64,000 nt of DNA, from positions 1 through 64,000 of IMG/VR virus record IMGVR_UViG_3300046697_000300; one strand, given 5' to 3'. Shown here piece by piece: positions 11,957 through 57,193 of the stretch (within the stretch, counting starts at the first letter, position 1; each line of letters starts with the position of its first letter). The stretch comes from a virus. The translations under genes were made by a program, and so were the position numbers. The notes under the pieces are model-generated. The model ran no database searches, was not told the origin of the DNA, and saw nothing but the letters and a program-made list of their open reading frames with translations.

Positions 11957-12140
11957 TTGATACTCCCCACGGATAAATCCGGGGGATTCTAGCGTTCTTT
12001 CGAACGCCTTAACTGTTTCAACCAGCGTAGCTGAATTTCTCCAGACTTACACACTGTCCGCAGTCGTTTAACGACTCCATGTATCCCAAGGCGTCGAGTA
12101 TCCTGATCCCTTCCGCTTTCAGATTTAGAGATGCGTTTCC
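11941..12140 (-). ncRNA. predicted TnpB guide RNA (omega/reRNA) region: tnpB 3' end + right end + 16-nt flank
   Basis: Inference from the known IS200/IS605 TnpB organisation. Hairpins at 11965-11985 and 11992-12007. 5' extent is not determinable by eye. Confidence 0.3.
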
Positions 12141-40724: not shown

Positions 40725-41973
40725 ATGGACCGACTCCACATGGTCGCCGATGCGCGCGCGAGTGAAGCCCGACGCGGTAGCGATTGCCGTAGAAAAGGGC
40801 TACACGTCGCTGGTTGCGATTGCCGACAAGATGGCAGGCCGCACCGGGCAGCACTGCGAGCATGTCTCGCCGGGTTGCGAGCGCTGCTACGCCGAAACCA
40901 ACAATCACCGCTGCCTGCCGGCCAACGGCACCGGGTTGCCCTACGATCGACGATCGCGCGATCTGGTCGAGGCCTTCGTCGACGAGAACGCGCTGATGCA
41001 GCCGTTCCATTGGCGGCCTGTTCTCCAGAACGACGGGACATACCTGAGAGGCAGCGAACAGGCGCGGCGCATGGCCCAGTTGCCGGCGCATCGTCCGCGG
41101 CGCATCTTTGTCGAGAACCAGTCGGACCTCTTCGGCGAGTGGGTGACGGACCAGATGCTCGACCGCGTCTTCGCGGTGATGGCGCTGTGCCAGTGGCATA
41201 TCTTTCAGGTGCTGACCAAGCGGCCGGCGCGGCTGCAGAGCTATTGTTCCGACGACGCGGCCCTAGGCCGCATCCTGCGCGCGGCAGACGGGTTAGCCAA
41301 AATCTTGAAAGGCCGGGCAGTGATGAAGGCCTGGGAAGTGGACGACGGTATGGGGGGCCGCCACCTTCCCAACGTCTGGCTGGGCGTGAGCGTTGAGAAT
41401 CAGGCCGCGGCCGACGAGCGGATCCCGCTGCTACTTAGGACGCCAGCGGCCGTGCGGTTCATCTCAGCGGAGCCGCTGCTGGGGCCGATTGCGTTACCGC
41501 ATCTCGTCTCCTTAGCCTGCATGGTCACGAGCGAGCTTCCAATTCCGCCAGCATTAAGCGTTCCCGCTGGCCAGCACATTGCGTTCTCAAATCCGCACGG
41601 AGCTCTTGCCGTCGCCGCCCAGGGTGGCGGTCTGCTCGGCATAAAGCCCGGCGAGTTTGTCGATCAGGGCACTGGCCTCGATTGGGTGATCTGCGGCGGC
41701 GAGAGCGGGCCTGGCGCGCGGGTGATGCACCCGGCTTGGGCGCGTAGCCTGCGCGACCAATGCGTGGACCCGGGCGTGCCGTTTTTCTTTAAGCAGTGGG
41801 GCGCTTGGCGCCCGGCTAAGGATGGCAGGCTGATCGTCGCAGAGGATGGCCACATCCGGCCGAAGCACGAGACCCTCACCGACAAAGATTGCCGCATGCG
41901 TCGTGAGGCCAAGAAGGCCGCCGGCGCCGAGCTCGACGGCCGCGAGTGGAAGCAGTTCCCGGGGGGTAAATGA
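40702..41973 (+). CDS. phage Gp37/Gp68 family protein (DUF5131), unusually long
   Basis: TGIEWTDSTWSP ... SPGCERCYAE ... FISAEPLLGPI ... DWVICGGESGPGAR ... FFFKQWG signature. ATG 40702 after GGAGG. Confidence 0.75.
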   Translation: MGTRTGIEWTDSTWSPMRARVKPDAVAIAVEKGYTSLVAIADKMAGRTGQHCEHVSPGCERCYAETNNHRCLPANGTGLPYDRRSRDLVEAFVDENALMQPFHWRPVLQNDGTYLRGSEQARRMAQLPAHRPRRIFVENQSDLFGEWVTDQMLDRVFAVMALCQWHIFQVLTKRPARLQSYCSDDAALGRILRAADGLAKILKGRAVMKAWEVDDGMGGRHLPNVWLGVSVENQAAADERIPLLLRTPAAVRFISAEPLLGPIALPHLVSLACMVTSELPIPPALSVPAGQHIAFSNPHGALAVAAQGGGLLGIKPGEFVDQGTGLDWVICGGESGPGARVMHPAWARSLRDQCVDPGVPFFFKQWGAWRPAKDGRLIVAEDGHIRPKHETLTDKDCRMRREAKKAAGAELDGREWKQFPGGK

Positions 41974-42138: not shown

Positions 42139-43842
42139 TTAGGCCCTTGGAATCTTGAGGCCGCCAATCCGGGGGCCCGTCAGGGGCAACCCCGCAGCAA
42201 CCGCCTTTTCCTTCTGCGCAATCCGGTGGGCTTCCTGCAGCGCCCAGCGCGCGATCGAGGTCTCATCGACGCCCGAGGCGCGCATCTCCTTCACCCTCTC
42301 CAGCATCTTGAGCCGCTCGGGCTTCACTGCCTCCACCAGCCAGGTGTTATAGGCATAGGCCACCATGTCGTAGAGGTCGTCGTCGGCGTCGCCGTGGATC
42401 TTCTTCACCGCCTTGCGCTCGTCGATCACCCGGGTCGCGACCGAGTTAAAGGTGCGCGGCATGGCCGTGGTCAGCACGATCTCCCTGCCGGCGAGGCCGG
42501 TATAGAGTTTCTGGGCGTTGTCGGCCGGGTTCTTGTGGCTCTTGATCAGCGAAACCCCGTGCTTCGCAAACACGCCGGCGATGATGTCGAAGTTGGTCTC
42601 GCCGGTGCCGTCCTCGTTGTCATTGGCGGGGTCGATCGTGGCAAACAGGATTTTGCGCCGCTCGTCGCCCATGCGCGGCTTGATCCAGAACTCGCAGATT
42701 TTTTCCGCGAACTCTTTGGAGATCATCTTCTGCTCGCTCAGTTCACCGATCCCGAAGACGCGGCCGTTATCGTCGACCGCAAACAACCCCGCCGCGGCGT
42801 GCGAGTTCCCGTAGCCGTAGTCGATCGAGATGAAGTGATTCCACCACCACTCGACGCCCACCTGCTGGAAGGGCATCGACCACTCCGGCCGCAGGAACCC
42901 GAAGTAGAGGCTCTCGGCGTTGCACCAGCAGCCATGGAGTAGCTGCATCTGGATCTCCGGGGTCTGCGAGAGCAGGGAGTCGATCTTGTCCTGGCCATAG
43001 AGCGGGTTGTCGGTCACCGAGGCCGGGAAGAACGCGACGGTCTTGTGCGTCAACTCAGACGGCGATGGCGGCCAACTCCAGCTTGTGCCGGAGTAGACGC
43101 GGCCTGGCCACACCGAGGAGTGCAGCGGGTCCGCGTCGAGCCTGGTGCCGGGGTAGTGGAGCGGGCAGCGGTTGCGCAGGAAGACGCTCATCTGCCAGCC
43201 GTGCCCGACGCCGCCGGGGTTGGTCGCAAAGCGCGCCCGCACGCGCAACCGGCGGTCGACCGCGGCGAGCCAGGCGATCATCTGCCTAACCCGAGCCTTG
43301 GGGTGCAGACCGCTCTCGTCGATGCCCAGCCAGGAGTATGGGTTACCGCGGTACTTCTTGAGGTCGGCGTCACTTGAGAGGTAGCCGAACCGGATACGGG
43401 CGCCGCTGCTGCCCAGAATCTTCACCCAGCGGCCGCGCTTGAATTCATACCCGGGAAAGATCCACTGGCCGCCGCCGGTTCTCAGCCGGTACTTGGCGCC
43501 CAGCGGTTCATAGGCCGCCTTCATCCGGTCGCCGATCTGGTCAAACTCGCCCAGTGACTCGCGCAAAAGCAGACCCCTGAAACTCGGGATCATGTACTCC
43601 TGCATCGCGTCGCCAACCAGAAAATCGCTCTTGCCCCCGCCCGACTGGCCGCCGTAGAGAAGCATCTCCGCCGGCGAGCAGAGCGCGGCCTGCTGGGCGC
43701 CGTTGATCGGCCACCAGACCGGGTCGAGTTCGGCCGTCGGCGGTATCCAGGCAGGGAAATCGTTGGGGATTGAGAGCTCGCCGGGCGCGAGCGGCGGAGG
43801 CAGTTGGAACAGGGCCGGCGGTGTAAAGGATTGCGTGCTCAT
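42139..43842 (-). CDS. terL: terminase large subunit
   Basis: Walker A GGQSGGGKS, Walker B-like WLGIDESG, nuclease-domain FISIDYGYGNSH...TIDPAND. ATGA overlap with the upstream gene. Confidence 0.85.
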   Translation of the reverse strand: MSTQSFTPPALFQLPPPLAPGELSIPNDFPAWIPPTAELDPVWWPINGAQQAALCSPAEMLLYGGQSGGGKSDFLVGDAMQEYMIPSFRGLLLRESLGEFDQIGDRMKAAYEPLGAKYRLRTGGGQWIFPGYEFKRGRWVKILGSSGARIRFGYLSSDADLKKYRGNPYSWLGIDESGLHPKARVRQMIAWLAAVDRRLRVRARFATNPGGVGHGWQMSVFLRNRCPLHYPGTRLDADPLHSSVWPGRVYSGTSWSWPPSPSELTHKTVAFFPASVTDNPLYGQDKIDSLLSQTPEIQMQLLHGCWCNAESLYFGFLRPEWSMPFQQVGVEWWWNHFISIDYGYGNSHAAAGLFAVDDNGRVFGIGELSEQKMISKEFAEKICEFWIKPRMGDERRKILFATIDPANDNEDGTGETNFDIIAGVFAKHGVSLIKSHKNPADNAQKLYTGLAGREIVLTTAMPRTFNSVATRVIDERKAVKKIHGDADDDLYDMVAYAYNTWLVEAVKPERLKMLERVKEMRASGVDETSIARWALQEAHRIAQKEKAVAAGLPLTGPRIGGLKIPRA

Positions 43843-44426
43843 CCGACCTTAATTGAACCCAGCCGGCTCTTGATCTTCGGCGCCGCTCCGGCCGGCGTGG
43901 TCGGCGTTGGCGGCTCAGGTACGCTCGGCGGCTGCGCCGCTGTCACGGGAAGAATGGGGGTCGGGGCTTCGGAGACCTGGACGAGGGCCTGGTAGAAGTG
44001 CGCCGGCCTGGGCGTCGCGTCCGAGTTTGGGTCGTCGCCGCCGCCGTGCGGCAGCAGCTCCAGCGATCGCATGGCGCCGTGCTGGATCCGGCCGTTGACG
44101 ACCAGGGCAGTCCGGATCGCGTCCATCTTGAGCGAGCCGTGCTCTTTGGGGTCGAGGACCATGACCTCGACCAGCGACGAGTCGATCAACTCGTTGGTTA
44201 GTTTCTCGGCCTTGACCTGCTGGCGCGCGCGCTCCAGGCGCACCGCCTCGTCCTGGCGCTCGAGTTCGGCCTGGAACTCGGGCAGGTTGAAGGTCTTGAT
44301 CGCCTGATTTTTAGGGATCCTCGCGTGTTCGGCGCCCTTGTAGATGTCGCGGTACTTGCGGAATTCCGTGACCATGCGCAACTGCGGCCTGGTCAGGGGT
44401 GGGGGGTCTTTCTCTTTTTTTGCCAT
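43839..44426 (-). CDS. probable terminase small subunit
   Basis: 195-aa basic N-terminus and Pro-rich tail, translationally coupled to terL. Position-based call only. Confidence 0.45.
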   Translation of the reverse strand: MAKKEKDPPPLTRPQLRMVTEFRKYRDIYKGAEHARIPKNQAIKTFNLPEFQAELERQDEAVRLERARQQVKAEKLTNELIDSSLVEVMVLDPKEHGSLKMDAIRTALVVNGRIQHGAMRSLELLPHGGGDDPNSDATPRPAHFYQALVQVSEAPTPILPVTAAQPPSVPEPPTPTTPAGAAPKIKSRLGSIKVG

Positions 44427-44477: not shown

Positions 44478-47400
44478 TTAGTAGTCGATCGGCACGCCGT
44501 GCTGGCGCAGCGTGTTCTCAAGCTCAGTAGCCGCCGGCACGTTCGAGCTGGCCAGCGTCTGGATCTTCCGGTCGGCCTTGGCTTCCATGATGTCAGAGAG
44601 TTCCGCGCGCTCGCTCGCGTCGGCTGCGTTCCACACCTTGACCGCGTCGTCGAAGTTGCTCATGTGCTTCACGTCGTACTGCAGGTCACTCATCGAGCCG
44701 CGCTCCTGGACCCTGGCAGCGTCCTGCGGCGAGATCTTGCCCGTCGACACCAGGTTCCAGAGGTCAGTCTGCGAGATCTGGCCGTCCCTGAATTTCTGGC
44801 TGAGTTGCACATTGCGCCGGCTTTCGGCCTGCCGCTCCTCGCTCTCCGGCTCGTCGGGTATCCCCCTAACGTAGAGGTCATGCGCCTTCTTCTCGAGGGG
44901 CGTGTGGTAGTTCGCCATGTTCGCGCCGAGCGAGGTGAAGAAGCTCTCGATCAGGCTCTGGTCGTTTGTGGTGAAGAGTTTCTGGACGGGGATCGGCGTG
45001 GTCTGGGTCGCGTAGCTCTTAGCAAAATGCGTCTTTGTTTCCTGCCGGCCAAAGTTGTCGCGGCCGGTGATGAACTCGATCGTCGGCCGTATCGTGACCG
45101 GGTTGAGCCGGTTATAGGTCCACTCAGCCGGGCTCGCCACCAGGTGGGCGATGTCCGAGTAAACGGTGCGGACCGAGATCGCCTTGTTGCCCCAGGCCGG
45201 GCCCCAGCTCTTTGGCGTGACGACGGTAAAGGCATCCTGCGGATCCCAATGCGCTCCGCGGCGCCAGCCCTGCTCGTGATTAAGGGCAGCGTTGATGATG
45301 CGGCATGCGGCATACATCAGCGCCGCGCCGCGCAACAGGGCCAGCCGCTGCTCCGAGCCAAACTTCGAGAAACCCTGCGCCACAAACTGCGCCCGGGCCT
45401 TGGTGAAGTCGGGCGAGAACAAGAGCAGGTGTTCGGCAGCCTTGAAGGTCCGGTTATTCATCACCTCAAGGTGCCGGAAGAACGCCGGATCCTGGCCGGA
45501 AAACGCAGCGTTGGTCTGGGCCGCGCTCATCAGGCCGATCTCGTCGCGGGTGAGCTTGGCCTGGGCGCCGGGCCTTCCGCCGCCGTAGCGCTCAAGGTTG
45601 CGCTCGTAGATGATCTTGTACGACTTGGCTTTGAGCCGCGGGATCCAGTCGCGGAAGAGGTACCTGTGATAGGCGCCCATCCCCGGCAGGCCGCTCAACA
45701 CGCCCTCGGGGTCGATCTCGACCATCTTGAGGCCGTGGCCGACGCCGTCCTGGACGGTCTTATCCTTGGTCAGGTCCTCGAGCGAGTCCAGCCGGAACGG
45801 GTTGATGAAGTGATCGAGCGCGTGCATGCCGAGCTGCACCTGGTGGAACCCTGAGCCGTAGAGGATCACGCCCTTCACGGTCGACCCGGCCTTGCCGACC
45901 GCCCGCGCCGTGCCCTTGATGATCTTCACGGGCAGGTGGTCTGAGGGTGACTCGAACCAACTGCGGGTGACGAGATCCGAGACCCGGCCGGCATACTTCG
46001 GGTGGATGACGATGTCGCCCTTCATGGCCAATTGCTTGCCCTCGGGCACCGGGAACCTGGGATCTTCGGGGGTAAACAGTTTCGCCTGCTCCGCCGGGTC
46101 CATCTTGGCATAGCCGGGTGCGAGCACCTCGCGGTCCTGGTCGTCGAGTTCCCAGGTAAAGTTGCGCAACTGGCTGGCCGGGATGCGCACGTAGTCGTCA
46201 ACGTTCTCGGGCCGCTTTGGCTGCTTCATGATCCGGGTCTCGCCGGCCGTGTTCTTGTCGACGATGGCCCAGCCTGAGCGGCTCTCAAGCGCAGCCAGAG
46301 GCCGGCCATCCTCGGGGTCCACCCCATACAAAAGCGATCGCACAAAGCCGCGGGTCATAAAGGTTTTGGTGAACGCATCGTGATACGACGATAAGATCCG
46401 GCCGGCGTCCATGGTCTTCGGGTCTTCGCCGCCCATGATCGCGTCGAAGAAACTCGGCCAAACCCGGCGCTTGAGAAAACTGGGGTTCGACATTAACTCA
46501 GAGAAGTCCGTCACCGCGCGCAACTTGGCCAGCGTCTCAGGATCAGTGGCAAAGGTGTGCATGGCGTAGTGTGACGCGCCCGCCGGCAGCAGGCCAGCGT
46601 CGGTCAGGATCTTCAACTGCTGCTGGTAGTAGCGGGTGTGCGCGTCGGCCACCTGCTGCTGTTCCGGGGTTAGATTGAGCGCATCTTTGAAGGCCTGGGC
46701 GTTGCGCTTGCCGCCGGGTTTTGACTCGAAGGCTACCGAGCCCGCGCCGGCTGCCCAGCGCTTGAGTGTTTGCGGGTCGCCACCGGCTTCGCCGTAGGCG
46801 GTCATCGCGTTGCGCTCGCGCTCGCTCGGCGCCACGCGCTTCAATTCCTTCTGGTAGCGATCGACGTCCATCGCGGCGCGCAGCTCGGCCTTGCGCAGGT
46901 CGCCCAGATTCTGGAAGTAGTCGGTCCACGGCGCCGGCTGTCCCCAACTGTCCCAGGCACCTGCTGCCGCGCCCTTGACGCCACCCCAGGCCTTTTCGAT
47001 CGCGGTGCCGGTCTTGGCCACGGCGGCGACGCCGGCGTCGCTCGCGGCCTCTACACGCTCGCCCATGCCCATCTTGCGGGCCGGCATCCCCTTGAGGTCA
47101 GCGATCGCGTCCTCAAGGCTCTTGCCGGTATCATGGCCGCCGGTCGTAACCGTGGTGGGGGTCGCCCGTGGCGCCTTGAGCCCGGCAAGTCGGTCGTGAA
47201 ACTCCTCCTCGCTCTCGTCGCCGCGTTTGGCGGTGAGGTCTTCCGACACTGGCGTGCGCTTGAAGAGCGGCTGGCCCTCGGTCATCACGCTCTCGCGCAT
47301 GGCGTCGGTGACCGGCAGGTAGGGCACGGTCACAGCGCCCAGTTCGCGGTTCAGCCGGTCGGCTTCGGCCTGGGCGGCGTCGCGGTCGTAATAGTGCATG

Positions 47401-50400
47401 TCCTTGGCGGGCGTCAAACCCTCCGACGAGATCACGCTGAAATCCGGCTGGCCGTCGCGCGGCGGTCCTTGCGTCACGCGCCATTTGTTATCGGGCAGGC
47501 TCGTCTCGACGACCTTGGCGCCGAACGGCTTGCCGATTTTGTTGGCGGTCTGGGGCACGATCTTGTCGTAGAAATTCTTCATCCCCTCGCCGCCGACCTT
47601 GAGGTCGAGGCCAGAGAAGGTTTGGCGGCCTACGGTCCCGGCCGCGGGCGCTCCCGCCACGATCTTTGCCGCCAGGTCCTTGCCCACGTGGTCTGCCAGT
47701 TTCTCCTCGGACACATCCAGTTCGACCTCGCGCCAGCGCCCGTCGGGCATGCGCGCTGTCAGATCGTACTTGCCATTGCCAAAGCCGATCGCGTCCAAAC
47801 TCTCGATTTGTCTGCTCAGGTCGTATCGTGCCGCCTGCTGCTCACCCGGCGTCCAACTGATGCCGTCGTAGCCGTTCTCGGCGGCGTAGCGGATCATCCG
47901 CTTCATCAGCAGCTCCGGCCAGGTCTTCTTGAAAGGCGCGTTCGGCACGCCGCGATTCCCGTTTTCATTCAGCCTACGCTGCGCCTCGTCGTACTCGCGG
48001 GTGATCGCCGCGAGCCTTGGGTCATCTCTCTCCGCGCCGCGGAAATCAGAGCGAACGATGTTTGTCTGCTCGATTGCGTCTTTTGCGCTAGAGGCAGCAA
48101 CCGTGTACACGATCCGGCCGTTGACCGAAACCTCCCAATCTCCCGGCGCTCCTGCCGCCGGCTCCGCGCTGAATTTAGCGAATCCGCGCAATTGCTTCCA
48201 GAGGTCGTTGCGCCGTAGCTCAAGCGCCCTTACTTCCTCGGCCGGAAGAGAGCGCAGATACCCTTCCGTGCGCCCTCTCTGGTGCCAGTCGCTCTGCAAC
48301 TCCTCTAGGTGCAGCAGCTTTTCGCCGTTCGGGCCGGTGCGGTCGTTGAAGCGCACATGGCCGATGACGTTCGGCTCTTCCCAGTGCGGCGTGCGGAAAT
48401 CGACGGCGTGGGTGTCGCTCCGGCTCTTCGTGTCGGCGACGTACTGCATCGCCCGGCCAGCACTGCTCATGCCGTAATTCTGCTTGGAGATCATGAACTG
48501 TTGGCCCGGCGCGTCGATCGCCCAATGTGTCGGCGTCGTGTCCTTCTCGTTGAGCTTCAGCTCAGAGAGATCGTAGCGCGAACTGCCTTGCGACGGCAGT
48601 GTGAGCAGTAGTTCGCGGTAGTTCTCGCCCCCGGGCAGCGTGTAGCCCTCAAATTTTACGGGGCCGGCGAGGCGCGGTTCCAGCGCCTTAACCTCGCGCT
48701 GGTGCGGTGTTCCGCCTTTCTCGACCTCCTGTATTCCTATATCGTTCGCGGCCAGCGTCTCGCGCAGTTCCTGCGGCTTGACCGGCGCGGTCCCCTTGGC
48801 GCGCAGCAGGTCGCCCAGGCCAGTCCACTCGAGCTCTTCCGGCTTCACGCCGTTGTTTTCCAGCATGCGCAGGGCGGCGTTGGCCGGCATCGGGCCCTGC
48901 ATCTTCTGGCCGATCAGCCGCTCGCTCTTGAGGTAGAACGTCGGCGCTTTTTCCAGTCCCTGTTCCCTGTTCCCTGTTCCCTGTCTTTTGAAGAGCGACC
49001 CCTGCGGGCTGGCGTCCGACCCTCTAAACAGCGGCGCGTTGCGCTCCATCTCGCCGGCCTTCTTGTCGATGTCGGCGAGCGGCGTCCGCAGTTGCTCCTC
49101 CATCGCCTGCTTCTCGGCCGCGGTCCTGGCCTCCTCAGCCTCCTTGACCGCGTCCTCCATGCCCGGGAAGGCGATCGGCTCGCCCTGGAGCGGAACAAAG
49201 CCCGGTGGCCGGCGGCGCTGGAAGAGGCCGCCCTGGCCGGCAGCCTCTAGTTCTGCTCGCGTCGGCGCTGTTCCCTCAGCGCCTGGTTGAAGGCCTGCAC
49301 CACCGGGCTCTCGGCTCCCCGCCGTATCAGGCGCGAGCCCTTGCCGAGGGGTTGCTTCGCGTACTGCTTCCCGGTTCGGTTGAGCCACTCCTCGGCCTTC
49401 TGCCCCTGCTCCTGCTCGAGCTGTTTGCTGTCCATACTCCCTCGCTCTCTTGATTACTTCGGCCAGTTTCGGGTCGGCGGCCGGCATCCCGTCGAGGACC
49501 GCCGGGCCCTTCTCGTCGATCGCGGCTTCGAGCGCCGCCTGCGCCAGGTCCTGCTGCTCGGTTCCCTTCCAGTCAATATCGGGGTCGCCCGCGAGCGCCT
49601 TCCCGACGATTTCCGCGGCGACCTGTGGGCCGTCGGCTTCCTTGTAGAGTTCCCTCAGTTTTGCCAGAACTCGCTCAAAGACCGGCATCGCGGCAAGCTC
49701 TTCCATGGTATCCGACCCGTAAAGCCCCGACCGGATATACCAGCGATGCCAGAGCTCCTCGCGCAACGTCGCTGGGTCGTAGTCGCCGCGAATCAGCAGC
49801 AGCGAACCGTCGGCGTCGCGGCCCTGGTCGAGTGCGAGCGCCAGCGCCTTGAGCGACTCTGCGGCCTGCCGCATGCCGGGCCGTACCCGCACGTTCGACT
49901 CAAACGATCGCACCCTGGCCACCATGCGCGAGGCCTCGGCGGCCACGAGATAAACCCCCTCGAAACGGTCCTCCGGAAAAGCGATCTTCCGGATGGCTTC
50001 GTAAGCCGGCGCGTTCATCACATGCACCGGCGCCCCGTCGACTTCCATGCGGTCGACTTTAGCCCTGGCGGCATTGTCCCAGGTCAGCCGGTTCTCGGCC
50101 GCAGAGAGCTCGCGCTGGTACCGTCCCCTGGCTATAAGTCGATTCTGCGTCTCTTCCGCGGTTTCGCCGGGGAGGCGACCGGCAGGTCGAGCGCCAGCGG
50201 GTACATCTCCAGAAGCTCCTCCGGCGTTGCGTCCCTGGTCGGGAACCAGATCTCCGGCTTCTGTCCGGGCCGGTACCGCACCTCGGGCGGCAGTATCACC
50301 TGCGGCTTGCCGAGTGGCTTCACTCGCTCGAGCGGCTGGCGTAGCAGCCGGCGGCGCCTCCTGAATCCGTGCCCCAGTTTCGGCATCTTCTCCCCCTACA

Positions 50401-53400
50401 ATCTGGCCCGTGTTTGGCTCGACCTGCGTCGCGCGGTCGTCGTACAGTTTCACCATCTTCGGGTCTTTGATGTTCGTGATCGGCAGCACCTGGCCCAGGT
50501 GTTGCTGGCTCCAGGCCTCGATCGACGCGCGGGCGACTCCGGTTGGGTCGTCGGCCACGCGCGCCGTAAAGAACCTGACATTCTTGACTAGCTTGCCGTC
50601 GACCCGCTCGCCATTGGCGAGGATGTTCCTGATCCGGTCGACCATCTCCGGAATCGGTTTCCCGATGAACTCTTTGCCTTTGAACTCGGTGTAGTGGGCG
50701 AGCGTCTTGTCGAGATCGACCCCGATCCACTCGGCCGCCGGATCCACTTTTGGCGGCTGCACCCGCTCAAGGTCGGTCGGCTTCACAGCCTCGCGGAGCT
50801 TGCCGTCAGAGAGCCGGACCCTGGCACGCACCAGCCCGGTTGAGGCCGGCGTCACGTATTGCACCACGCCGGCGGTGCCGTCCCTCAATCGGACGACGTC
50901 GCCCTTGGCTATCTCTCCGGGGCCTCGCTCTGCGGCGGCACTACCGGCTCCTGCTGCGCCGGCGCCTCGCCCTCCTTGGGTTGCGTCAGGCCGAACCTGC
51001 TGGCTGCCTGCCGGTACAGTTCGAGGCCCCTCAGCACCCGCTCCTTCGCCGCGCTTGTAAGCCTGGGCCAGCGCGGTCCTTGCGGCGCTATAGGCTCTGC
51101 GTTTGATCTCACTCGCGTTCCCCTTTCCCTCGGCCAGTTCCGTGGCGGCCGCGTTAAGGATGTCGTCGACCGTCCCGGTGCGCGTACTCAGCCGGTCATA
51201 AATTTCCTGGTCCTGGTCCTGCGCCGCGGTCTCAGCGGTCTTCGCGTTCTCGGCCGCGTTGATCTTGTTCTGGCCCTTTTCAAGCGTTGCCGCGCGGCCC
51301 TTGTCGGCGACCGTGGCAAAGAGCCTGCGCTCCCTGCCAATCTCGTCGCGGATATAGGCCGAGATCTCCGCCTTTTCGAGCGCCAGGTTGCGCCGCATCT
51401 CGACCGCTCCGAAGAGCGTCTGCTGCGTCTCGGCGTGTTCGCCGGCACCCGACGCCATCCTGGCTAACTCGGCTACCGTATCGTCACTTACGCGACGGCC
51501 CCGCATCTCCTGGCGCTCGATCAGCTTGAGAATTGCTTCCTGCTGCTCTGGGACCGCCGTGGCGTTGCCGATCTCGACGGCACGGCCGATGCGCAACTGC
51601 CCGCTGACGACCTTGTCGAAGAGTGAACTGTGGAGCCGCGACAGCGCCAGGCCGTTCGCGGCCGTGGCTTCACCCAAGGATATGCCCTTTTCTTTCAGAT
51701 CCGCAAGCCCAATTCCGCTATCGCGGAAGAACTTCGCTGCGTCAACTGCGGTTCCGCGGCCCTCGGCGATGTTCTGGAGCGCGGCCGTGGCCCGGGCTTC
51801 CTCGGCCGTTGTGGCCGGCAGGTGCAGCGCGTTTAGCCGGGGCACCTCGTTTTCCTTGGCGTGCTGGGCCCGGTGGTGGCCGTTGACGACGTAGAGTTTA
51901 CCGTTTGCGGGATCTCGCCAGACAGAGATCACGCCGGCCAGGTCCGGGTTCCATTTCTGGCCCTTGAGCAGGTTGGTTGTCCCCGATGCGTCGGTATTGA
52001 GTTTGTATTGGAAGCGCTTCGGATCGAAGGCTATCTCGGAGGTCTTGACCGAGCCTACTTCGCCCGGGCCTGGTTCGCGTCCTCGGGCGCCAGGCGCGCT
52101 TTCCACTTCGTTTTTGGGTTTAACTTCAACGCCTGGTCCAAGCTCACCACGGGCGCGCTCTCCCTGACTCTCGCGCTCAGACTTGTGGGCTTTGAGGGCG
52201 GATTCTGCGGTTTTGAGATCGGTGCCTGTGCCATAACTGAAATCGACTCCCTTCAACTGTACCTGTGATCCGGCCGGCTCGATGCCGTCGAAAACCTGCG
52301 CTCTGAGAATTTCCCTTGCCTTTTCCAGTTTCGCTTCAATGTCTTTTGGCGAGTCACCGCGGTAAAGGAACTCGTCGCCCTTGTCGTGGTACGCATCGAG
52401 GCCAGCCGCCCTCAGGGCCTCGGCCTTCGCGCGCAGCAGCTCGTCGCCGGCGGCGTAGCCAAAACGGTCATTGAAGGCCTTGAGCCCGTCTGCGTCGCTC
52501 ATCGCGACCGCGGCGGCCGGCTGCTCGCGCTGCTTCTCTTCAAAGGCCCGTCGGTTGGGCAGGCCGGTCTTCTCGCTGGTCAGCAGTTCGCGCCGCATCT
52601 CTTCGGGCGCCATCTCAGCCACACGCTGCCGGCGGCCAGCGTCGACGCGCCGGTCTGGAGTTCCCTTGAGCGGGATCTCGGTTTCATTCCCCTTACTGTC
52701 GGTAACCGTGATCGAGTTGACCTTGAACGGCTTGCCTGCTGTGACCTGGTTGCCCACGTACTTCTGAGCGGCCTCGGGCTTCACGTAGGCGATCGTCGCG
52801 TGGGGTTTGTAGTCGGCGAAGTTTGACCGGGCAAAGTCGCCATGCTGCTCGATCTCGCGGTTGAGCCGGGCAAGCTCGGTGCTCTCGACGGGCGCATGCA
52901 GCGGCACGGCGCCATCAGAGTGAACCGAAGGCGGAAAGGCTGCGACAGGCCCCAGCGTCGCATCGAACGGGGTCTGCGACTCAATGAAGAAGCGCAACCC
53001 CGGGGTTAGGTCATGTTGCAGGCCGTAGCGCACCGTAACATGGTTGCCGCCCACATCCTTGCCCTGGCCGGCAAGGTCGGCCTCGGGAATCGCGGCGCGG
53101 GCCTGCTCGATCGCCTGGGCGGCATCCGAACCAGCCGGGATGTTCGAGTGTGTGGTGCCGAACTCGTGCTCGGTCGCCGTCTCCTGCTGGCGCGCCTGAA
53201 AGTCCTGCCAGTGTTGATCGTTCCGCTGGCGCAGCTCGGCCGCGGCATCCTTGTCGCCGTCGCGCGCCTTCTCGTAGAGGCTGTGGTCTTTATTGGCGGC
53301 GTCGGCCACTTCGCGCGGCAGAATCTGCACCTCGTGCGACACGTCGGACCCGGGCGCGCGCACGTTGAGCGTGTAGGAGTGGAACCCATGATCCTCGTCG

Positions 53401-55496
53401 CCCTGGGCAAAGTTGTCCTGCTCGGCGTGCACTTCGAAGCGTTGGCGAAGCGCCGCGATCGTCGCCGGCACGTCGGCCGGGGAGTCGACGGCGATGCGGA
53501 ATCCGGAGTAGTCGCGTGCCGTGGCCGACGACTGGCCTTCGTCCTCGATCTTTTCCTCGAGCCGGTCGGCATCCTTCTCGGGTCTGGCTCCTGCTAACTT
53601 GGCCCCCGGTACATCACTTAGCGCCGTTTTGATGGTCGCCTTGACCTCGGGATGCTCCTCGGTTGCGCGCGCCTGAATCGCTTCGGGATTGTTGCCCTCC
53701 TGGAGCACGGGCCGCTCGGTCTCTGGCTCGACCGCGCCAATTGGTTTGACTGGTTCGCCGGCAGTGCCCGCAGGCGCTGCCGGGTTATTCGGCACCGATG
53801 TTCCCCGTGGAACATTCTCGCCGCCGCCGGCGGTGAGCTCTGCCGGCGCTGCCGGGGTTGGCGGCGCTGCAGCCGGCGCTGGTTGGCCGTAAGTGGCCTC
53901 TCTCGCGCCTACTCTCACCTTGGCGGTTGGCGTCCCCGGCACCACGCGGCTGCCCTCCTCGGCGCTGTAGCTGCCCGTGGGGCCCTGCTCCCGATAGGCT
54001 GGCCTGTAGCCGACCTGGCCCTCTATGGGTCCGGCACCAGCGCGCAGGCCGTGCTCCCCGTAGGCTCCTTCATACGTGCGCACGCCAGCCAGGTGCGCGC
54101 CCGTCAGTAAGGCAAACAGAGCATCAGCAGGGGCCGCCGTCCAGGCCTGGGTGGCTGTGATCACATCGCCCTTTTTATAGGCGTCGTAACCCAGGTTGAA
54201 CTGCTGCACTGCTTCCTTGGCCATGCCGGCGGCAAAACCCATACCGCCAAGGATCCTCACTGCCCGCGGCACCGACGATGATCCAAGCGCATACATCAGG
54301 GCAAGATTTTCCGGGGTTGTCAGCCCGTCCGCAACCTGTCTCGCGCCACCGCCCATGCCGCGCAGGACGTTCGCCACCGAGAGGCCGCGGTCTTGAATCT
54401 TTGCAATCTGATCAGGGTCGCCGGACTTGTAAGTGTCGATCGCTTCGCGCAGCGGATCAGTTGCGTTTTCCATGTTCTTCTGGCGCTCTGCCTGGTCCGG
54501 AGGCATCCCCGCAGAGATCAGAAGCCGCTTGTACTCTTCTGGCGTTGTCCGCCCAAACATGGGTGATTTTTTGTCGAGCGCGTCGAGCATGTCCACGGCC
54601 CGCGTGAGCAGGGGTTTTCCGGTTATGGGATTAGCGGCTAGAGCGGCCGGAATCCCCGCGACGTTCGTCCCGATATTGCGCACCGTCGCTGTAGCCTGTT
54701 TGGCGTTGTCCTCCGCCCTGTCCATCTCCCTACCGAGCGTGCCGTCACCGCTTGGGTAGGGTAGTTCGCGGATCGCATCCCAGGCGCGGCCAAAAAGTCC
54801 TTTCGTTGGCGCGGCCTCGAGCGCTCCCGGGTGGGCCACTGCGCGGGCCGGTTTGAGCGGCGTTGCGGTTGTCGCTTCGAATGGCTCTCTAGGAAGCGCC
54901 GCCTCCTGCTGAATCTGCTCCTGCATGTTGCGCGGCGGTGCGCTGGCTGGTGCCCGGGAAAAGCCCTCTGCCGCCGGCCCGGCAAGTTCCATCTTTTCAG
55001 GTATAAGGGGTTTCAGCGGCACGAGTTCAGTCGGCAGCGTCGCGCGGTTGATGTCGATCTGTTGTGCCTGCCGTTCGGCGGTGAAAGCCGGCAACACCTT
55101 GTAGCCCTTGGGCACGTCCTCGTAGTCGGCGGCCTCCTGCGGGGTCTCCATCTCCGCGCCTGGCTGGCGTGTCAGGCGCAACCCTGGAGGCATGGCCGCC
55201 GGTGTCGGCGGCTTGTACTGGCCGCCAGGGAGAAACTGCGGCTCTAAGATGCTGGTCTGCCGCGGCGCCGGAGTGATCGAGTCGACTGCGGGTCTCTGGC
55301 CTTGGGGCTGGGCTGGCTGCGCTGGCGCCTGGGGAGCTGCGGCGGGCGGAGCCTGGGCCGGTGCCGCCGGTGGCAGCACCTTGTAGCCGTCGGGCACGTC
55401 GGAATACTGCTGCGGCTGGGTGTCCGATCCAGCCGGCGGCAGCACCTTATAGCCCTGGGGCACGTCCGAATACTGCTGTTGGTCCTGGTCGTCCAT
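44478..55496 (-). CDS. giant multidomain (polyvalent-type) protein, 3672 aa
   Basis: Uninterrupted ORF. Start set at ATG 55496 (TAATG overlap with the upstream stop). Domains read by motif: RelA/SpoT-like, 2H phosphoesterase, GGDEF-like, ParB-like, HAD-like and an EELQSDWHQ module (see findings). Confidence 0.85.
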   Translation of the reverse strand: MDDQDQQQYSDVPQGYKVLPPAGSDTQPQQYSDVPDGYKVLPPAAPAQAPPAAAPQAPAQPAQPQGQRPAVDSITPAPRQTSILEPQFLPGGQYKPPTPAAMPPGLRLTRQPGAEMETPQEAADYEDVPKGYKVLPAFTAERQAQQIDINRATLPTELVPLKPLIPEKMELAGPAAEGFSRAPASAPPRNMQEQIQQEAALPREPFEATTATPLKPARAVAHPGALEAAPTKGLFGRAWDAIRELPYPSGDGTLGREMDRAEDNAKQATATVRNIGTNVAGIPAALAANPITGKPLLTRAVDMLDALDKKSPMFGRTTPEEYKRLLISAGMPPDQAERQKNMENATDPLREAIDTYKSGDPDQIAKIQDRGLSVANVLRGMGGGARQVADGLTTPENLALMYALGSSSVPRAVRILGGMGFAAGMAKEAVQQFNLGYDAYKKGDVITATQAWTAAPADALFALLTGAHLAGVRTYEGAYGEHGLRAGAGPIEGQVGYRPAYREQGPTGSYSAEEGSRVVPGTPTAKVRVGAREATYGQPAPAAAPPTPAAPAELTAGGGENVPRGTSVPNNPAAPAGTAGEPVKPIGAVEPETERPVLQEGNNPEAIQARATEEHPEVKATIKTALSDVPGAKLAGARPEKDADRLEEKIEDEGQSSATARDYSGFRIAVDSPADVPATIAALRQRFEVHAEQDNFAQGDEDHGFHSYTLNVRAPGSDVSHEVQILPREVADAANKDHSLYEKARDGDKDAAAELRQRNDQHWQDFQARQQETATEHEFGTTHSNIPAGSDAAQAIEQARAAIPEADLAGQGKDVGGNHVTVRYGLQHDLTPGLRFFIESQTPFDATLGPVAAFPPSVHSDGAVPLHAPVESTELARLNREIEQHGDFARSNFADYKPHATIAYVKPEAAQKYVGNQVTAGKPFKVNSITVTDSKGNETEIPLKGTPDRRVDAGRRQRVAEMAPEEMRRELLTSEKTGLPNRRAFEEKQREQPAAAVAMSDADGLKAFNDRFGYAAGDELLRAKAEALRAAGLDAYHDKGDEFLYRGDSPKDIEAKLEKAREILRAQVFDGIEPAGSQVQLKGVDFSYGTGTDLKTAESALKAHKSERESQGERARGELGPGVEVKPKNEVESAPGARGREPGPGEVGSVKTSEIAFDPKRFQYKLNTDASGTTNLLKGQKWNPDLAGVISVWRDPANGKLYVVNGHHRAQHAKENEVPRLNALHLPATTAEEARATAALQNIAEGRGTAVDAAKFFRDSGIGLADLKEKGISLGEATAANGLALSRLHSSLFDKVVSGQLRIGRAVEIGNATAVPEQQEAILKLIERQEMRGRRVSDDTVAELARMASGAGEHAETQQTLFGAVEMRRNLALEKAEISAYIRDEIGRERRLFATVADKGRAATLEKGQNKINAAENAKTAETAAQDQDQEIYDRLSTRTGTVDDILNAAATELAEGKGNASEIKRRAYSAARTALAQAYKRGEGAGAEGPRTVPAGSQQVRPDATQGGRGAGAAGAGSAAAERGPGEIAKGDVVRLRDGTAGVVQYVTPASTGLVRARVRLSDGKLREAVKPTDLERVQPPKVDPAAEWIGVDLDKTLAHYTEFKGKEFIGKPIPEMVDRIRNILANGERVDGKLVKNVRFFTARVADDPTGVARASIEAWSQQHLGQVLPITNIKDPKMVKLYDDRATQVEPNTGQIVGGEDAETGARIQEAPPAATPAARASEATRQAAGDTAARGAVPARTEAGDLVPDQGRNAGGASGDVPAGARPAGRLPGETAEETQNRLIARGRYQRELSAAENRLTWDNAARAKVDRMEVDGAPVHVMNAPAYEAIRKIAFPEDRFEGVYLVAAEASRMVARVRSFESNVRVRPGMRQAAESLKALALALDQGRDADGSLLLIRGDYDPATLREELWHRWYIRSGLYGSDTMEELAAMPVFERVLAKLRELYKEADGPQVAAEIVGKALAGDPDIDWKGTEQQDLAQAALEAAIDEKGPAVLDGMPAADPKLAEVIKRAREYGQQTARAGAGAEGRGVAQPNREAVREATPRQGLAPDTAGSREPGGAGLQPGAEGTAPTRAELEAAGQGGLFQRRRPPGFVPLQGEPIAFPGMEDAVKEAEEARTAAEKQAMEEQLRTPLADIDKKAGEMERNAPLFRGSDASPQGSLFKRQGTGNREQGLEKAPTFYLKSERLIGQKMQGPMPANAALRMLENNGVKPEELEWTGLGDLLRAKGTAPVKPQELRETLAANDIGIQEVEKGGTPHQREVKALEPRLAGPVKFEGYTLPGGENYRELLLTLPSQGSSRYDLSELKLNEKDTTPTHWAIDAPGQQFMISKQNYGMSSAGRAMQYVADTKSRSDTHAVDFRTPHWEEPNVIGHVRFNDRTGPNGEKLLHLEELQSDWHQRGRTEGYLRSLPAEEVRALELRRNDLWKQLRGFAKFSAEPAAGAPGDWEVSVNGRIVYTVAASSAKDAIEQTNIVRSDFRGAERDDPRLAAITREYDEAQRRLNENGNRGVPNAPFKKTWPELLMKRMIRYAAENGYDGISWTPGEQQAARYDLSRQIESLDAIGFGNGKYDLTARMPDGRWREVELDVSEEKLADHVGKDLAAKIVAGAPAAGTVGRQTFSGLDLKVGGEGMKNFYDKIVPQTANKIGKPFGAKVVETSLPDNKWRVTQGPPRDGQPDFSVISSEGLTPAKDMHYYDRDAAQAEADRLNRELGAVTVPYLPVTDAMRESVMTEGQPLFKRTPVSEDLTAKRGDESEEEFHDRLAGLKAPRATPTTVTTGGHDTGKSLEDAIADLKGMPARKMGMGERVEAASDAGVAAVAKTGTAIEKAWGGVKGAAAGAWDSWGQPAPWTDYFQNLGDLRKAELRAAMDVDRYQKELKRVAPSERERNAMTAYGEAGGDPQTLKRWAAGAGSVAFESKPGGKRNAQAFKDALNLTPEQQQVADAHTRYYQQQLKILTDAGLLPAGASHYAMHTFATDPETLAKLRAVTDFSELMSNPSFLKRRVWPSFFDAIMGGEDPKTMDAGRILSSYHDAFTKTFMTRGFVRSLLYGVDPEDGRPLAALESRSGWAIVDKNTAGETRIMKQPKRPENVDDYVRIPASQLRNFTWELDDQDREVLAPGYAKMDPAEQAKLFTPEDPRFPVPEGKQLAMKGDIVIHPKYAGRVSDLVTRSWFESPSDHLPVKIIKGTARAVGKAGSTVKGVILYGSGFHQVQLGMHALDHFINPFRLDSLEDLTKDKTVQDGVGHGLKMVEIDPEGVLSGLPGMGAYHRYLFRDWIPRLKAKSYKIIYERNLERYGGGRPGAQAKLTRDEIGLMSAAQTNAAFSGQDPAFFRHLEVMNNRTFKAAEHLLLFSPDFTKARAQFVAQGFSKFGSEQRLALLRGAALMYAACRIINAALNHEQGWRRGAHWDPQDAFTVVTPKSWGPAWGNKAISVRTVYSDIAHLVASPAEWTYNRLNPVTIRPTIEFITGRDNFGRQETKTHFAKSYATQTTPIPVQKLFTTNDQSLIESFFTSLGANMANYHTPLEKKAHDLYVRGIPDEPESEERQAESRRNVQLSQKFRDGQISQTDLWNLVSTGKISPQDAARVQERGSMSDLQYDVKHMSNFDDAVKVWNAADASERAELSDIMEAKADRKIQTLASSNVPAATELENTLRQHGVPIDY
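49832..49866. repeat. 35-nt segment identical to 55653-55687
   Basis: gtgcgagcgccagcgccttgagcgactctgcggcc read at both places. Here it encodes AAESLKALALAL in the giant gene's high-GC3 frame. Confidence 0.85.
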
Positions 55497-57193
55497 TATT
55501 GCCCGGGTCGCGACTCGGCGACCCATTTACCGCCTCGCTTTACTTCAATGTGACCGTCGGGTGCCTGCCGGCGCAGCCCCTCGGGGGCGGGCTGCCGCGG
55601 TGCCTTGCGGCTCGTCGCGGCGGCCGCGGCCGGCGACTGCACCAGTTGGCCCGTGCGAGCGCCAGCGCCTTGAGCGACTCTGCGGCCCGCGGCGGCCGCG
55701 GCCGGCGACTGCACCAGTTGGCCCTGCGGGTCGATCATCCAGCCGTCCTTCGCTAGCTTCGCGTTCGCGTCCTGGCGCAACTTTGTGACCTTGGCGTCGT
55801 ACTCGGTGCCGGTGATTGAATCGAACTTTCCCGGCACCGTGGTGCGATAGTTGCCGTTTGGCTGTCGCTTCCAGGTGCTGGTGAACTCCGTGATCTTGCT
55901 CATGCCGTCGTCGGCCGCAGCCTTGACAGTATCCGGCGGCGTTGCGCTTGGCGGCTCCTTCTCCCGGCCGCCGGCCACCTGGTTGATCTGGTTGAGGTCG
56001 TCGAGCGTCGGTTGCTTGCCGCGGTTGGCCGGGTCGCGCTCCCATGCCCGCAGGGCCTGCGCCCGGGCCGTCTCCTCGGCGGTGGCCTGCCGTGGGTCGA
56101 AAAGCCGGCCGTTGGCGCGGTAGAAAGCGGCGTACTGGCCCTTGAGGCCGAGCCTGGTCGCTTCAGCATCCCACTGTTTGTACTTGGCTGCCCACTCGGC
56201 ATTGGTCTCGGCCGTCTTGACGGCTGCCTTTGCCTCGGGGGTGTTCTGGTCGGCCGTGGCTTGGGTCTTCACCAGGTCCGCCGCCGTGGTGCCGACGTGT
56301 GCATAGTCGGGCGCAACGGTCTGGAGATCCTTGCCCTTGTCCCGAATTGCCGAGGTCGCCGCGTTGAAGCGCGCGATGATGTCGGCCTTGCGCTGCTGGT
56401 CCTGGGCGAGTGTTCCCTGCCGCAGTTGCTCGTCCTCGGTGTAGTCCTTGTTTGGCGAGCCGTAGGGCGTCGCCTGATCGGGGTGGCCGCCAAAGCCCTC
56501 GGCGAAGTTCTTGAACACGCGGCCGACTGTGCCCCCGAAACTATCCTTGTAAAGCGGTTTGCCAGTCACCGGATCTGTCGCCCTGGGATTGGTGGGGATT
56601 GAATCGGTCTCGATTTTCGTGTCGATCGCCGTGGTGTCGGGCGCTGCGGGTTCGGCCTGGAAGGCTTGCCGATTCTGGTCGGCGATCGAGAGCTCGCCCT
56701 CGAGACCCTTTTGGGCGTAGCCTGCCCAAGGTGCCGCGCCAGCCGGTGCGGGCGCCGCGGGGTTCGATGGGTTCGGATTGGGTGCGGCCGGGTCGGGCGC
56801 CGTGGCTGCTGGTCCCAGCGTCTCTGGCGGCGGGGCGGCCGGCTGGCCGGGCTGGGGCCTCGTGTGGAGTACGGGCCTGGCCGGCGAGCCTGGAGGATCC
56901 TGAAAGCGTGGATCCGGATCGGCAGCCGCTGGCTGCGGAGCAGCAGCCGGAGCGGCCGGTTCGGGGGTCGGCGGAGGGGTTGCCTGCGCAATCTGCACGG
57001 CCTGCGCGCTGGCGTTCCTTTCATCGCTGGCGGCCTTATACGGGCCCGAGAGTTGGCTCAATGCGGCGGAGGCCTTGCCCGGGTTTGCGCGTAGTTCGTC
57101 TGGGTCGTATCCGGCCGCCGCGAGCGGCGCAGAACTCCGGCTCATTGAGGCCAGGTCGCTGCCGTCTGCCCAGTCTGTCCAGTCGTCAGCCAT
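55496..57193 (-). CDS. hypothetical virion-operon protein (565 aa) with Pro/Ala-rich centre
   Basis: ATG 57193 (TGATG overlap) inside track ORF 55496..57292. Confidence 0.65.
   Translation of the reverse strand: MADDWTDWADGSDLASMSRSSAPLAAAGYDPDELRANPGKASAALSQLSGPYKAASDERNASAQAVQIAQATPPPTPEPAAPAAAPQPAAADPDPRFQDPPGSPARPVLHTRPQPGQPAAPPPETLGPAATAPDPAAPNPNPSNPAAPAPAGAAPWAGYAQKGLEGELSIADQNRQAFQAEPAAPDTTAIDTKIETDSIPTNPRATDPVTGKPLYKDSFGGTVGRVFKNFAEGFGGHPDQATPYGSPNKDYTEDEQLRQGTLAQDQQRKADIIARFNAATSAIRDKGKDLQTVAPDYAHVGTTAADLVKTQATADQNTPEAKAAVKTAETNAEWAAKYKQWDAEATRLGLKGQYAAFYRANGRLFDPRQATAEETARAQALRAWERDPANRGKQPTLDDLNQINQVAGGREKEPPSATPPDTVKAAADDGMSKITEFTSTWKRQPNGNYRTTVPGKFDSITGTEYDAKVTKLRQDANAKLAKDGWMIDPQGQLVQSPAAAAAGRRVAQGAGARTGQLVQSPAAAAATSRKAPRQPAPEGLRRQAPDGHIEVKRGGKWVAESRPGQ
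55617..55723. repeat. 35-nt direct repeat (55617-55651, 55689-55723) flanking a 37-nt insert
   Basis: Both copies read gcggcggccgcggccggcgactgcaccagttggcc. Period 72 nt, in frame in the 565-aa gene (GQLVQSPAAAAA x2). Confidence 0.85.

Follow-up and report, generated by a model that had tools for sequence, protein, structure and literature searches.

The giant open reading frame and its enzyme domains

We analyzed a window of 64,000 nucleotides, positions 1 to 64,000 of the IMG/VR virus record IMGVR_UViG_3300046697_000300, in which one giant open reading frame (ORF) occupies positions 44478..55496 of the minus strand and encodes a predicted polyvalent protein of 3,672 amino acids (aa), as judged by ORF reading and an exact-sequence look-up. 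All positions refer to this window, and the segments of the giant protein all lie on its minus strand. The gene accounts for 17% of the ~64-kb phage-like contig and is read in a single uninterrupted frame from 55526, the first in-frame ATG, to 44478. The ATG at 55496 shares letters with the TAA that ends the upstream ORF (gcaATAATGgac, TAATG), and a start there yields the 3,672-aa product; both the single 11-kb ORF and the TAATG coupling had been noted in an earlier, sequence-only reading of this DNA and are confirmed. By exact-sequence look-up the identical 3,672-aa protein is present on five metagenome contigs from three JGI samples, the longest being Ga0494740_000408 (64,288 bp), and we therefore take the ORF to be real and no assembly artefact. 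A fused gene call or a chimeric assembly of several smaller genes could be argued from two relatives, contigs L007 and L008, in which the region is broken into several called genes. However, these breaks come from frameshifts or garbled sequence in ENA assemblies of long reads (the terminase gene of L007 is fragmented as well), 100 of the best 150 relatives of the module termed MOD, described below, also measure at least 2,000 aa, and the GC content is uniform along the gene, at 0.63-0.66. Together with the identical intact copies, these observations make an artefact extremely improbable. Two further ideas, that the C-terminal 923 aa form a separate gene in relatives and that stop codons are recoded in L008, were rejected on inspection of the same long-read frameshifts and garbled stretches. 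Neither the gene nor its surroundings contained more promoter- or terminator-like sites than shuffled sequence did, and among 50,697 phage records megablast found no match to the gene.

To assign domains, the protein was cut at its low-complexity linkers, and the segments and the whole chain were compared with Pfam, the segments also with NCBIfam. The Pfam cutoffs were 27 bits for PF04607 (RelA_SpoT), PF13563 (2_5_RNA_ligase2) and PF23474 (Acb1), and 23.8 bits for PF00990 (GGDEF). In the whole protein the 2H domain scored 36.9 bits, GGDEF 36.4 bits and RelA_SpoT 24.8 bits, the last being under its cutoff, and a faint Acb1 match was also present. NCBIfam yielded diguanylate-cyclase models only, and the seven segments beyond RelA_SpoT, 2H/Acb1 and GGDEF had no Pfam match.

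The first of the three domains thus recognised is a RelA/SpoT-like nucleotide pyrophosphokinase domain (aa ~630-745, 53262..53609), which as an isolated segment reached 31.7 bits against PF04607. Residues R638, K641, K649, D662, E722 and Y741 are invariant in an alignment of the giant protein and eight relatives, so that the synthetase motifs RxK, the D of DxxGxR, the E of ExQ and HxxY(K) are all kept. A profile of the domain retrieved small alarmone synthetases and Rel enzymes from the PDB (2be3 at E 4e-7, YwaC, YjbM and RelSeq) in alignments where RxK, DxxGxR and ExQ line up, the nearest solved relatives being RelQ/RelP-type synthetases. The second is a 2H phosphoesterase domain (aa ~800-945, 52662..53099), which scored 43.1 bits against PF13563 as an isolated segment and whose two HxT motifs (HVT at 819-821 and HAT at 899-901) are invariant in an alignment of nine sequences. 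The top solved structure for its profile is Acb1, the phage anti-CBASS 2H phosphodiesterase, yet at E 0.13 only, and the Acb1 family PF23474 gave 17.8 bits, under its cutoff. The domain thus resembles Acb1 in its 2H fold, its two HxT motifs and its top structural match, and differs in that the match is under significance and in that the domain is embedded in a chain of 3,672 aa; Acb1 itself is a small free protein. No paper connecting Acb1 with polyvalent proteins was found in a literature search.

The third is a GGDEF-type nucleotide cyclase domain (aa ~965-1115, 52152..52604), with 36.5 bits against PF00990 for the isolated segment. The Pfam alignment spans the first half only, but aa 970-1068 are covered by PDB matches to WspR- and PleD-type cyclases, and with recognisable C-terminal elements the domain is full length. 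Its signature motif reads KGDEF in the giant protein and five close relatives and GGDEF in a more distant one (P0005). The D-E-F residues and the upstream DxD...K..ND residues are retained, and the domain has no RxxD inhibitory site (I-site). The identities of these domains and the conservation of their catalytic residues are direct observations of this analysis.

Downstream of the cyclase, profiles define a segment (aa ~1150-1470, 51087..52049) that looks like a ParB/Noc N-domain followed by a DNA-binding helix-turn-helix (HTH) and a helical extension. In its alignment G-H-x-R is invariant, the motif being GHHR here, and its profile matched Noc in the PDB (7nfu, E 1.2e-3), with GHHR placed on GERR and the alignment running on through the HTH. 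Neither Pfam ParBc nor ddrB-ParB was matched by the segment. It did match phrog_21, a family labelled 'portal protein', at E 7e-65, and since the match covers profile positions 1004-1339 of 1362, it corresponds to a C-terminal extension of some portal-family proteins. Next come a small beta-rich stretch (aa ~1527-1585, 50742..50918), which has only three local homologs, in two of which it lies directly ahead of the following unit, and then that unit itself (aa ~1588-1700, 50397..50735), whose motifs, DLDKT ... T ... K ... DD, suggest a HAD-like domain. Residues D1594, D1596, T1598, T1644, K1677 and DD1686-87 do not vary among five sequences, and the unit is 51% identical to a phiRSL1 hypothetical protein; it had zero Pfam or PDB profile matches up to E 10, and Pfam was empty for every member of its alignment too. 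A further conserved domain, S9 (aa ~1780-2030, 49407..50159), is shared by six relatives and marked by REExxHxW ... AKAxAGD. Pfam and PDB sequence-profile searches with S9 were empty, and a weak HEC-01B match to it was the sole result of PADLOC on nine segments.

Set against the domains proposed from the sequence alone, these results uphold the RelA/SpoT-like nucleotidyltransferase, the 2H (HxT...HxT) phosphoesterase, the KGDEF cyclase and, at the level of its motif and the Noc profile match, the ParB/Srx (GHHR) domain. The KOW/SH3-like call for aa ~1527-1585 is unsupported, as no profile matched that stretch. The HAD (DxDxT) nucleotidase-like domain keeps its invariant motif residues but has no Pfam or PDB profile behind it, so that of the four enzymes in the proposed nucleotide-signal toolkit three (RelA/SpoT, 2H and GGDEF) are real, with their catalytic residues, while the HAD nucleotidase is unsupported.

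Intact catalytic motifs would also be expected of a host-takeover toxin with no anti-defence function, whose RelA-like domain would deplete ATP, make (p)ppApp or pyrophosphorylate tRNA while the ParB-like unit nicked host DNA and the 2H and HAD-like domains remodeled RNA ends, so that the host would be shut down to the advantage of the phage. Phage RelA/SpoT-type domains fused to MuF are in fact bactericidal (p)ppApp synthetases (PMC12226406), and ParB-like DNases and 2H domains acting as RNases have been discussed by Iyer et al. (PMC5512222). However, the surroundings yielded no immunity gene, the ParB unit is like a Noc/ParB DNA-binding N-domain with an HTH and not like a dedicated nuclease, and the nearest solved relative of the 2H domain is the signal-degrading Acb1, though that match is weak. 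On balance we consider a toxin unlikely, if with appreciable weight.

MOD, the C-terminal domain and the N-terminal region

The enzyme domains are followed by MOD, a module with the signature 'HLEELQSDWHQ' (aa ~2180-2750, 47247..48959), which we delimited by family search. When 1.84 billion representative proteins were searched exhaustively with HMMER, 11,343 clusters matched at E<=1e-3, of which 4,909 also passed E<=1e-30. MOD is found in very large proteins (43 of the best 150 relatives reach 3,000 aa or more, up to a maximum of 7,058 aa) and also in shorter ones of 500-1,000 aa. Across 61 sequences 26 positions are invariant, many of them polar, including an H, an R, E-x-Q-S-D, R-Y-x-L and F-Y-D. 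The AlphaFold2 (AF2) model is confident, with a predicted local distance difference test score (pLDDT) of 83 and a predicted template-modelling score (pTM) of 0.78. Nevertheless, MOD had no match in Pfam, NCBIfam or PHROGs, its sequence profile matched nothing in the PDB, and a Foldseek search of the PDB with the model gave nothing at E<=1e-3. Nearly all of the 120 best homologs are likewise without a precomputed Pfam domain; a few carry PF18760 (ART-PolyVal), PF18819 or PF18823 (which we take to be MuF_C and InPase, respectively), PF09954 or PF23719. MuF is a portal-associated head protein.

The distribution of MOD bears on the expectation that its signature marks huge proteins of phages and conjugative elements alike. 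Among the 50,697 phage records, MOD was found only in a Dolichospermum phage, where a 2,387-aa protein has two copies, and in one environmental phage. Among 72,556 plasmids, it was found only in four large Pseudomonas aeruginosa plasmids, inside a ~5,000-aa 'LPD23 domain-containing protein' (in NZ_CP115292.1, our locus L012, at 67300-82302; the host plasmids measure 220-280 kb). The presence of MOD in this plasmid protein means that it is not confined to small phages; its rarity there (4 of 72,556) makes an association with conjugative elements weak. As a family, the module noted from the letters is genuine and very widely distributed. In other phages MOD proteins lie close to the portal gene: the NCBI contig L009 has the order Terminase_3, P22_portal and MOD protein, with a P22 coat gene later, and MW202675 has portal, M15 peptidase and MOD protein. 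By analogy, this position argues for virion association.

Several (P/S/G)LF(K/R/Q)(K/R) motifs occur on both sides of MOD, at aa 2090, 2155, 2167 and 2743 (window ~47260-49230, minus strand). GxPLF closes the MOD family consensus, and the C-terminal domain in several of its homologs starts right after 'EGQPLFKK'. Motifs of this LF(K/R/Q)(K/R) type are candidate processing or docking sites.

The remaining C-terminal part of the protein is a helical domain (aa ~2790-3672, 44481..47129), defined by AF2 and Foldseek. Sequence searches found it in only eight proteins, all close relatives, and local searches among giant MOD proteins added distant relatives down to 25% identity (range 25-79%). Its AF2 model is of moderate confidence (pLDDT 72.7, pTM 0.67) and almost wholly helical. 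Foldseek found no match to it in the PDB at E<=1e-3. In BFVD, a database of predicted viral structures, the same program gave 17 matches at E<=1e-3, led by one at 2.6e-12 (probability 1.00). They comprise C-terminal pieces of uncultured-phage proteins annotated 'Large polyvalent protein associated domain-containing', and also uncharacterised proteins of the Cellulophaga phages phi19:3 and phi46:3. Weaker matches bear the annotations LT_GEWL (4.8e-5), helicase (6.4e-5) and MuF_C (4.4e-3), and a row annotated ART-PolyVal was not significant (E 0.61). Because of these fold matches, the C-terminal ~900 aa appear to be a domain common to phage polyvalent proteins. The sequence-only reading had left these ~900 residues unassigned, which no longer holds for their predicted fold, common as it is to the C-termini of such proteins.

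At the other end, a low-complexity N-terminal region (55089..55472) contains, as had been read from the letters, three DVPxGYKVLP repeats, more fully Y(S/E)DVPxGYKVLP, at aa 9-20, 31-42 and 125-136. The relative on L007 (L007:1544-1800) has three GVPxGL(I/V)xEP repeats in the equivalent place, and the triple repeat may be a candidate short linear docking motif. Motifs of the form [DE][LV]PxGYxV, akin to the repeat, also occur elsewhere in other MOD-family proteins. Further in, phmmer and Kyte-Doolittle analysis point to a conserved region (aa ~370-480, 54057..54389) that includes a moderately hydrophobic segment, the Kyte-Doolittle maximum of 1.32 falling at aa 454-472. This region recurs N-terminal to MOD in relatives of ~800-1000 aa, its phmmer matches comprising seven MOD proteins.

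The A/P/G/Q-rich linkers between domains and the PLF(K/R)-type motifs flanking MOD would be compatible with an unpackaged cytoplasmic polyprotein, possibly cleaved at these sites, that supplies enzymes of nucleotide metabolism or RNA repair while the phage replicates. A 2H domain with a phosphatase is a known RNA end-healing combination, and in such a protein the 2H domain and a HAD-type 3'-phosphatase would heal cleaved tRNA; also, no neighbouring gene is proven to encode a virion protein. Against this explanation, the HAD call is unsupported, Pfam detected no ligase or kinase domain in the whole protein or its segments, no peptidase domain was found that could carry out processing, and the 2H versions in polyvalent proteins are never associated with RNA ligases (PMC5512222). 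Furthermore, the MOD and C-terminal carrier parts, and the portal-adjacent MOD genes elsewhere, favour virion association. A cytoplasmic polyprotein is thus quite improbable.

Relatives and neighbouring genes

When the segments of the giant protein were mapped onto 262 collected proteins, a common plan emerged, in which variable N-terminal units are followed by MOD and then, in one lineage, by the C-terminal domain. P0070 (3,345 aa) has the order RelA-GGDEF-ParB-SH3-HAD-S9-S10-MOD-C-terminus, without 2H. The order is RelA-2H-HAD-MOD-C-terminus in P0049 and P0017 and RelA-2H-ParB-...-ART-PolyVal-MOD-C-terminus in P0009. In P0002 the RelA, 2H and GGDEF domains are not detectable; its sequence starts inside the ParB extension and so may be missing its 5' end. 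Of the eight RelA-bearing relatives, five have RelA and 2H side by side. The giant gene is also present on L007 and L008, two related ~63-kb ENA contigs (57-79% identity), and in L008 (57% identical) the GGDEF domain is absent. Pfam ART-PolyVal and ddrB-ParB domains are found in relatives with both MOD and the C-terminus, and PF18819 and PF18823 in homologs that have only MOD in common with the giant protein. Relatives thus retain MOD and the C-terminus yet exchange enzyme domains. The recurrent RelA-2H tandem and the natural domain-loss variants are new findings of this analysis.

The giant gene lies two genes ahead of the terminase large subunit gene (TerL, 42139..43842, minus strand), which matched phrog_979 (E 6.5e-23) and phrog_2 (E 8e-19), and is translationally coupled to the ORF upstream of it. 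Between the giant gene and TerL is a 195-aa ORF (43839..44426, minus strand), which is in the terS position and had no Pfam or PHROG match and no tblastn match in cultured phages; of the terS/terL pair expected downstream, terL is therefore secure and terS is assigned by position only. The coupled upstream ORF (55496..57193, minus strand) encodes a Pro/Ala-rich protein of 565 aa with just nine homologs, none of which has a Pfam domain. Neither it nor the other upstream ORFs (350, 192, 357 and 1,056 aa) had a Pfam or PHROG match or a tblastn match in cultured phages, and the claim that these are virion-type genes could not be confirmed. Because portal, capsid and tail genes were not identifiable by profile, a virion operon at the giant gene is drawn here from TerL and synteny only, by which analogy it is plausible.

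This neighbourhood is also what would be expected if the giant protein were chiefly a structural DNA-ejection protein of an internal core or ejectosome, comparable to T7 gp16 or the giant N4 virion protein, with MOD and the C-terminus forming the conduit or core and the enzymes being secondary passengers with little effect on defence. The gene order, large upstream ORFs followed by the giant gene, terS and terL, is like that of T7-type morphogenesis modules. The ParB region also has a homologous stretch in a 2,563-aa protein of P-SCSP1 cyanopodoviruses; there the order is gp11, gp12, three more genes and then the 2,563-aa protein, which puts it in the gp16 position of T7. Moreover, T7 gp16 carries a lytic-transglycosylase domain, and one fold relative of the C-terminal domain is annotated as containing a LT_GEWL lytic-transglycosylase domain. 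Finally, phi24B gp47, a 2,811-aa polyvalent protein detected in virions by proteomics, has been proposed as an ejection protein (bioRxiv 10.64898/2026.04.10.717836). The giant protein is similar to phi24B gp47 (LPD5/LPD1/LPD38/MuF-C), the N4 virion RNA polymerase (vRNAP) and T7 gp16 in its huge size, in belonging to a small genome and in its place in a late or terminase region, and, by analogy, in the encapsidation and ejection proposed for it; unlike N4 vRNAP and T7 gp16, it has no RNA polymerase or transglycosylase domain that we could find. Neither its sequence nor its folds resemble solved core or ejection proteins, no peptidoglycan hydrolase domain and no strong transmembrane segments were found in it, and the link to T7 gp16-type core proteins would be one of positional analogy, made through P-SCSP1 only. 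In addition, the catalytic residues of the three enzymes are under clear purifying selection, which argues that they are not idle passengers. We regard a chiefly structural role as doubtful while giving it real weight; it is also compatible with, and not exclusive of, our preferred explanation of a packaged enzyme carrier, set out below.

Elsewhere on the contig, the phage markers are TerL, a DUF5131 gene and an endolysin-like gene. The DUF5131 (Gp37/Gp68-type) protein (40654..41973, plus strand) is 427-439 aa long here and 260-289 aa in L007 and L008. Since its Pfam match spans aa 67-436 for a model of 243 positions, it appears to contain an insertion of ~150 aa. In L007 and L008 an N6_N4 DNA methyltransferase gene lies beside DUF5131, and no such Pfam match was found in the window's locus. 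A papain-like protein (Peptidase_C1, E 7e-4; 10664..11461, minus strand), whose tblastn matches include the Alicyclobacillus phage MMB025 endolysin, may be a lysis enzyme, as its sequence suggests. A phage-encoded Cpn60/GroEL-type chaperonin of 586 aa (34506..36266, plus strand) is kept in related contigs. An IS200/IS605-type transposase of 396 aa (12018..13208, minus strand; phrog_506, E 1.7e-104) sits in a low-GC island (within 12000-22000) with a GC content of 0.47-0.57 against ~0.64 elsewhere. The large ORFs at the window's other end (853, 578 and 437 aa, and others) had no Pfam, PHROG or cultured-phage tblastn match, as is the case for nearly all large ORFs of the window, and relatives of 63-65 kb are present in ENA, JGI and Logan assemblies. 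The phage looks like a member of a deep-branching, uncultivated lineage.

Class membership and proposed mode of action

Polyvalent proteins of phages and conjugative elements were defined by Iyer, Burroughs, Anand, de Souza and Aravind in 2017 in the Journal of Bacteriology (PMC5512222). That study described DdrB-like ParB, 2H, RelA/SpoT and GGDEF domains in such proteins and proposed that the nucleotides produced by nucleotide-activated defences may be degraded by 2H domains and that interfering signals may come from RelA/SpoT and GGDEF domains. The giant protein carries disparate activities on one chain (RelA_SpoT, 2H, GGDEF and ParB/HTH, with at least four further conserved units), it is encoded by a phage gene near the terminase, and both its C-terminal fold and the domains of its relatives are those of polyvalent proteins. 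Its placement in this class by the sequence-only reading is therefore upheld, and we consider it well supported that the protein is a genuine, well-preserved member. It shares with the class the combination of many unrelated catalytic and DNA-binding domains in one very large phage polypeptide, the 2H, RelA/SpoT, GGDEF and ParB types themselves, and the same proposed logic of delivery with the DNA and action on nucleotide signalling and defence of the host. It differs from the class as described in lacking a Pfam LPD, MuF or zincin peptidase match, in having carrier parts (MOD and the C-terminus) that lie outside Pfam, in presenting three nucleotide-acting enzymes in tandem, and in a ParB unit that is Noc/ParB-like with an HTH and falls short of the ddrB-ParB model. 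The domain combination had been put forward as one not recognised before. Its novelty is weaker than that, because the 2H, RelA/SpoT, GGDEF and DdrB-like ParB types and a role in signal interference were already listed or proposed in 2017, and the RelA-2H tandem and the other domains recur in many metagenomic relatives. A different comparison is with the Apk2 and MuF polymorphic toxins (PMC12226406; PMC5576092), which likewise place a RelA/SpoT-family pyrophosphokinase on a phage carrier; here, unlike there, the carrier is MOD with the C-terminal domain and not MuF, and no immunity gene was seen.

These observations provide the basis for a model that we hold to be fairly probable, in which the giant protein is a phage polyvalent protein composed of a conserved carrier and an exchangeable cassette of nucleotide enzymes, packaged in the virion, ejected with the DNA and acting early; its packaging, ejection, substrates and anti-defence role, including any activity against CBASS, Pycsar, Thoeris or type III CRISPR, are what we infer. 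The carrier would consist of the N-terminal repeat and hydrophobic region, MOD and the ~900-aa helical C-terminal domain. The cassette would be the stretch between the N-terminus and MOD, with the RelA/SpoT-like domain, the Acb1-like 2H domain, the KGDEF cyclase, the ParB/Noc-like unit, the HAD-like unit and two further domains. We predict that the protein is made late in infection, that it enters the capsid by means of its carrier parts, coming to lie near the portal or within an internal core, and that it is expelled along with the DNA. Within the class, phi24B gp47 is the one precedent for packaging that we found. Since it would enter with the DNA, its enzymes could be active in the first minutes of infection, ahead of any phage gene expression. 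At that stage the 2H domain may hydrolyze cyclic or 2'-5'-linked oligonucleotide defence signals, and the RelA/SpoT-like domain may carry out (p)ppApp- or (p)ppGpp-type synthesis or pyrophosphorylate RNA 3' ends, causing the host to stall. The GGDEF domain would synthesize cyclic dinucleotides, and the ParB/HTH unit would bind the incoming DNA.

Several results weigh against this model. No portal, capsid or tail gene of the contig was identified with PHROGs, Pfam or tblastn, or by BLASTP comparison with a P22-type portal. In the PDB, no solved ejection or core protein matched MOD or the C-terminus (Foldseek, E<=1e-3), and hhalign found no similarity between their profiles and phi24B gp47, which is virion-proven. 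The giant protein has no Pfam MuF, LPD, ART-PolyVal, ddrB-ParB or metallopeptidase match, and no strong transmembrane segment was found in it, the Kyte-Doolittle maximum being 1.32. As for the enzymes, the relationship of the 2H domain to Acb1, under threshold by both measures, is weak, the KGDEF motif deviates from the canonical GG(D/E)EF, and a lone GGDEF domain would have to dimerise for cyclase action.

A bolder version of the model would make MOD a previously undescribed and possibly catalytic carrier that, with the C-terminal domain, serves many uncultivated phages as their chief means of bringing interchangeable effector cassettes into the capsid. For the present lineage the cassette would be a pre-packaged nucleotide-signal jammer, formed by the Acb1-like 2H, RelA-like and KGDEF domains, that works before any phage transcript is made and disarms signalling of the CBASS, Thoeris or type III CRISPR type at DNA entry. 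We offer this version as speculation and think it rather unlikely to hold in full.

Should the protein be packaged with active enzymes, a phage could deliver its counter-defence against immunity based on nucleotide signalling as protein, together with the genome, and the vulnerable window ahead of phage gene expression would be closed. Delivery before expression was predicted by Iyer et al. (2017), and we found no experimental test for these domain types in the literature. The giant protein is a compact object for such a test, with three enzyme domains whose catalytic residues are intact and natural relatives that are missing one or another of them. For the wider family, the size of the MOD family together with its absence from annotation is new, as is, by the predicted models, the recognition of a shared C-terminal domain. 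Both parts are very common in metagenomic phages and are without a family model. Family models for MOD and the C-terminus would improve the annotation of thousands of giant phage genes, and defining the two might reveal how large cargo is targeted to the capsid.

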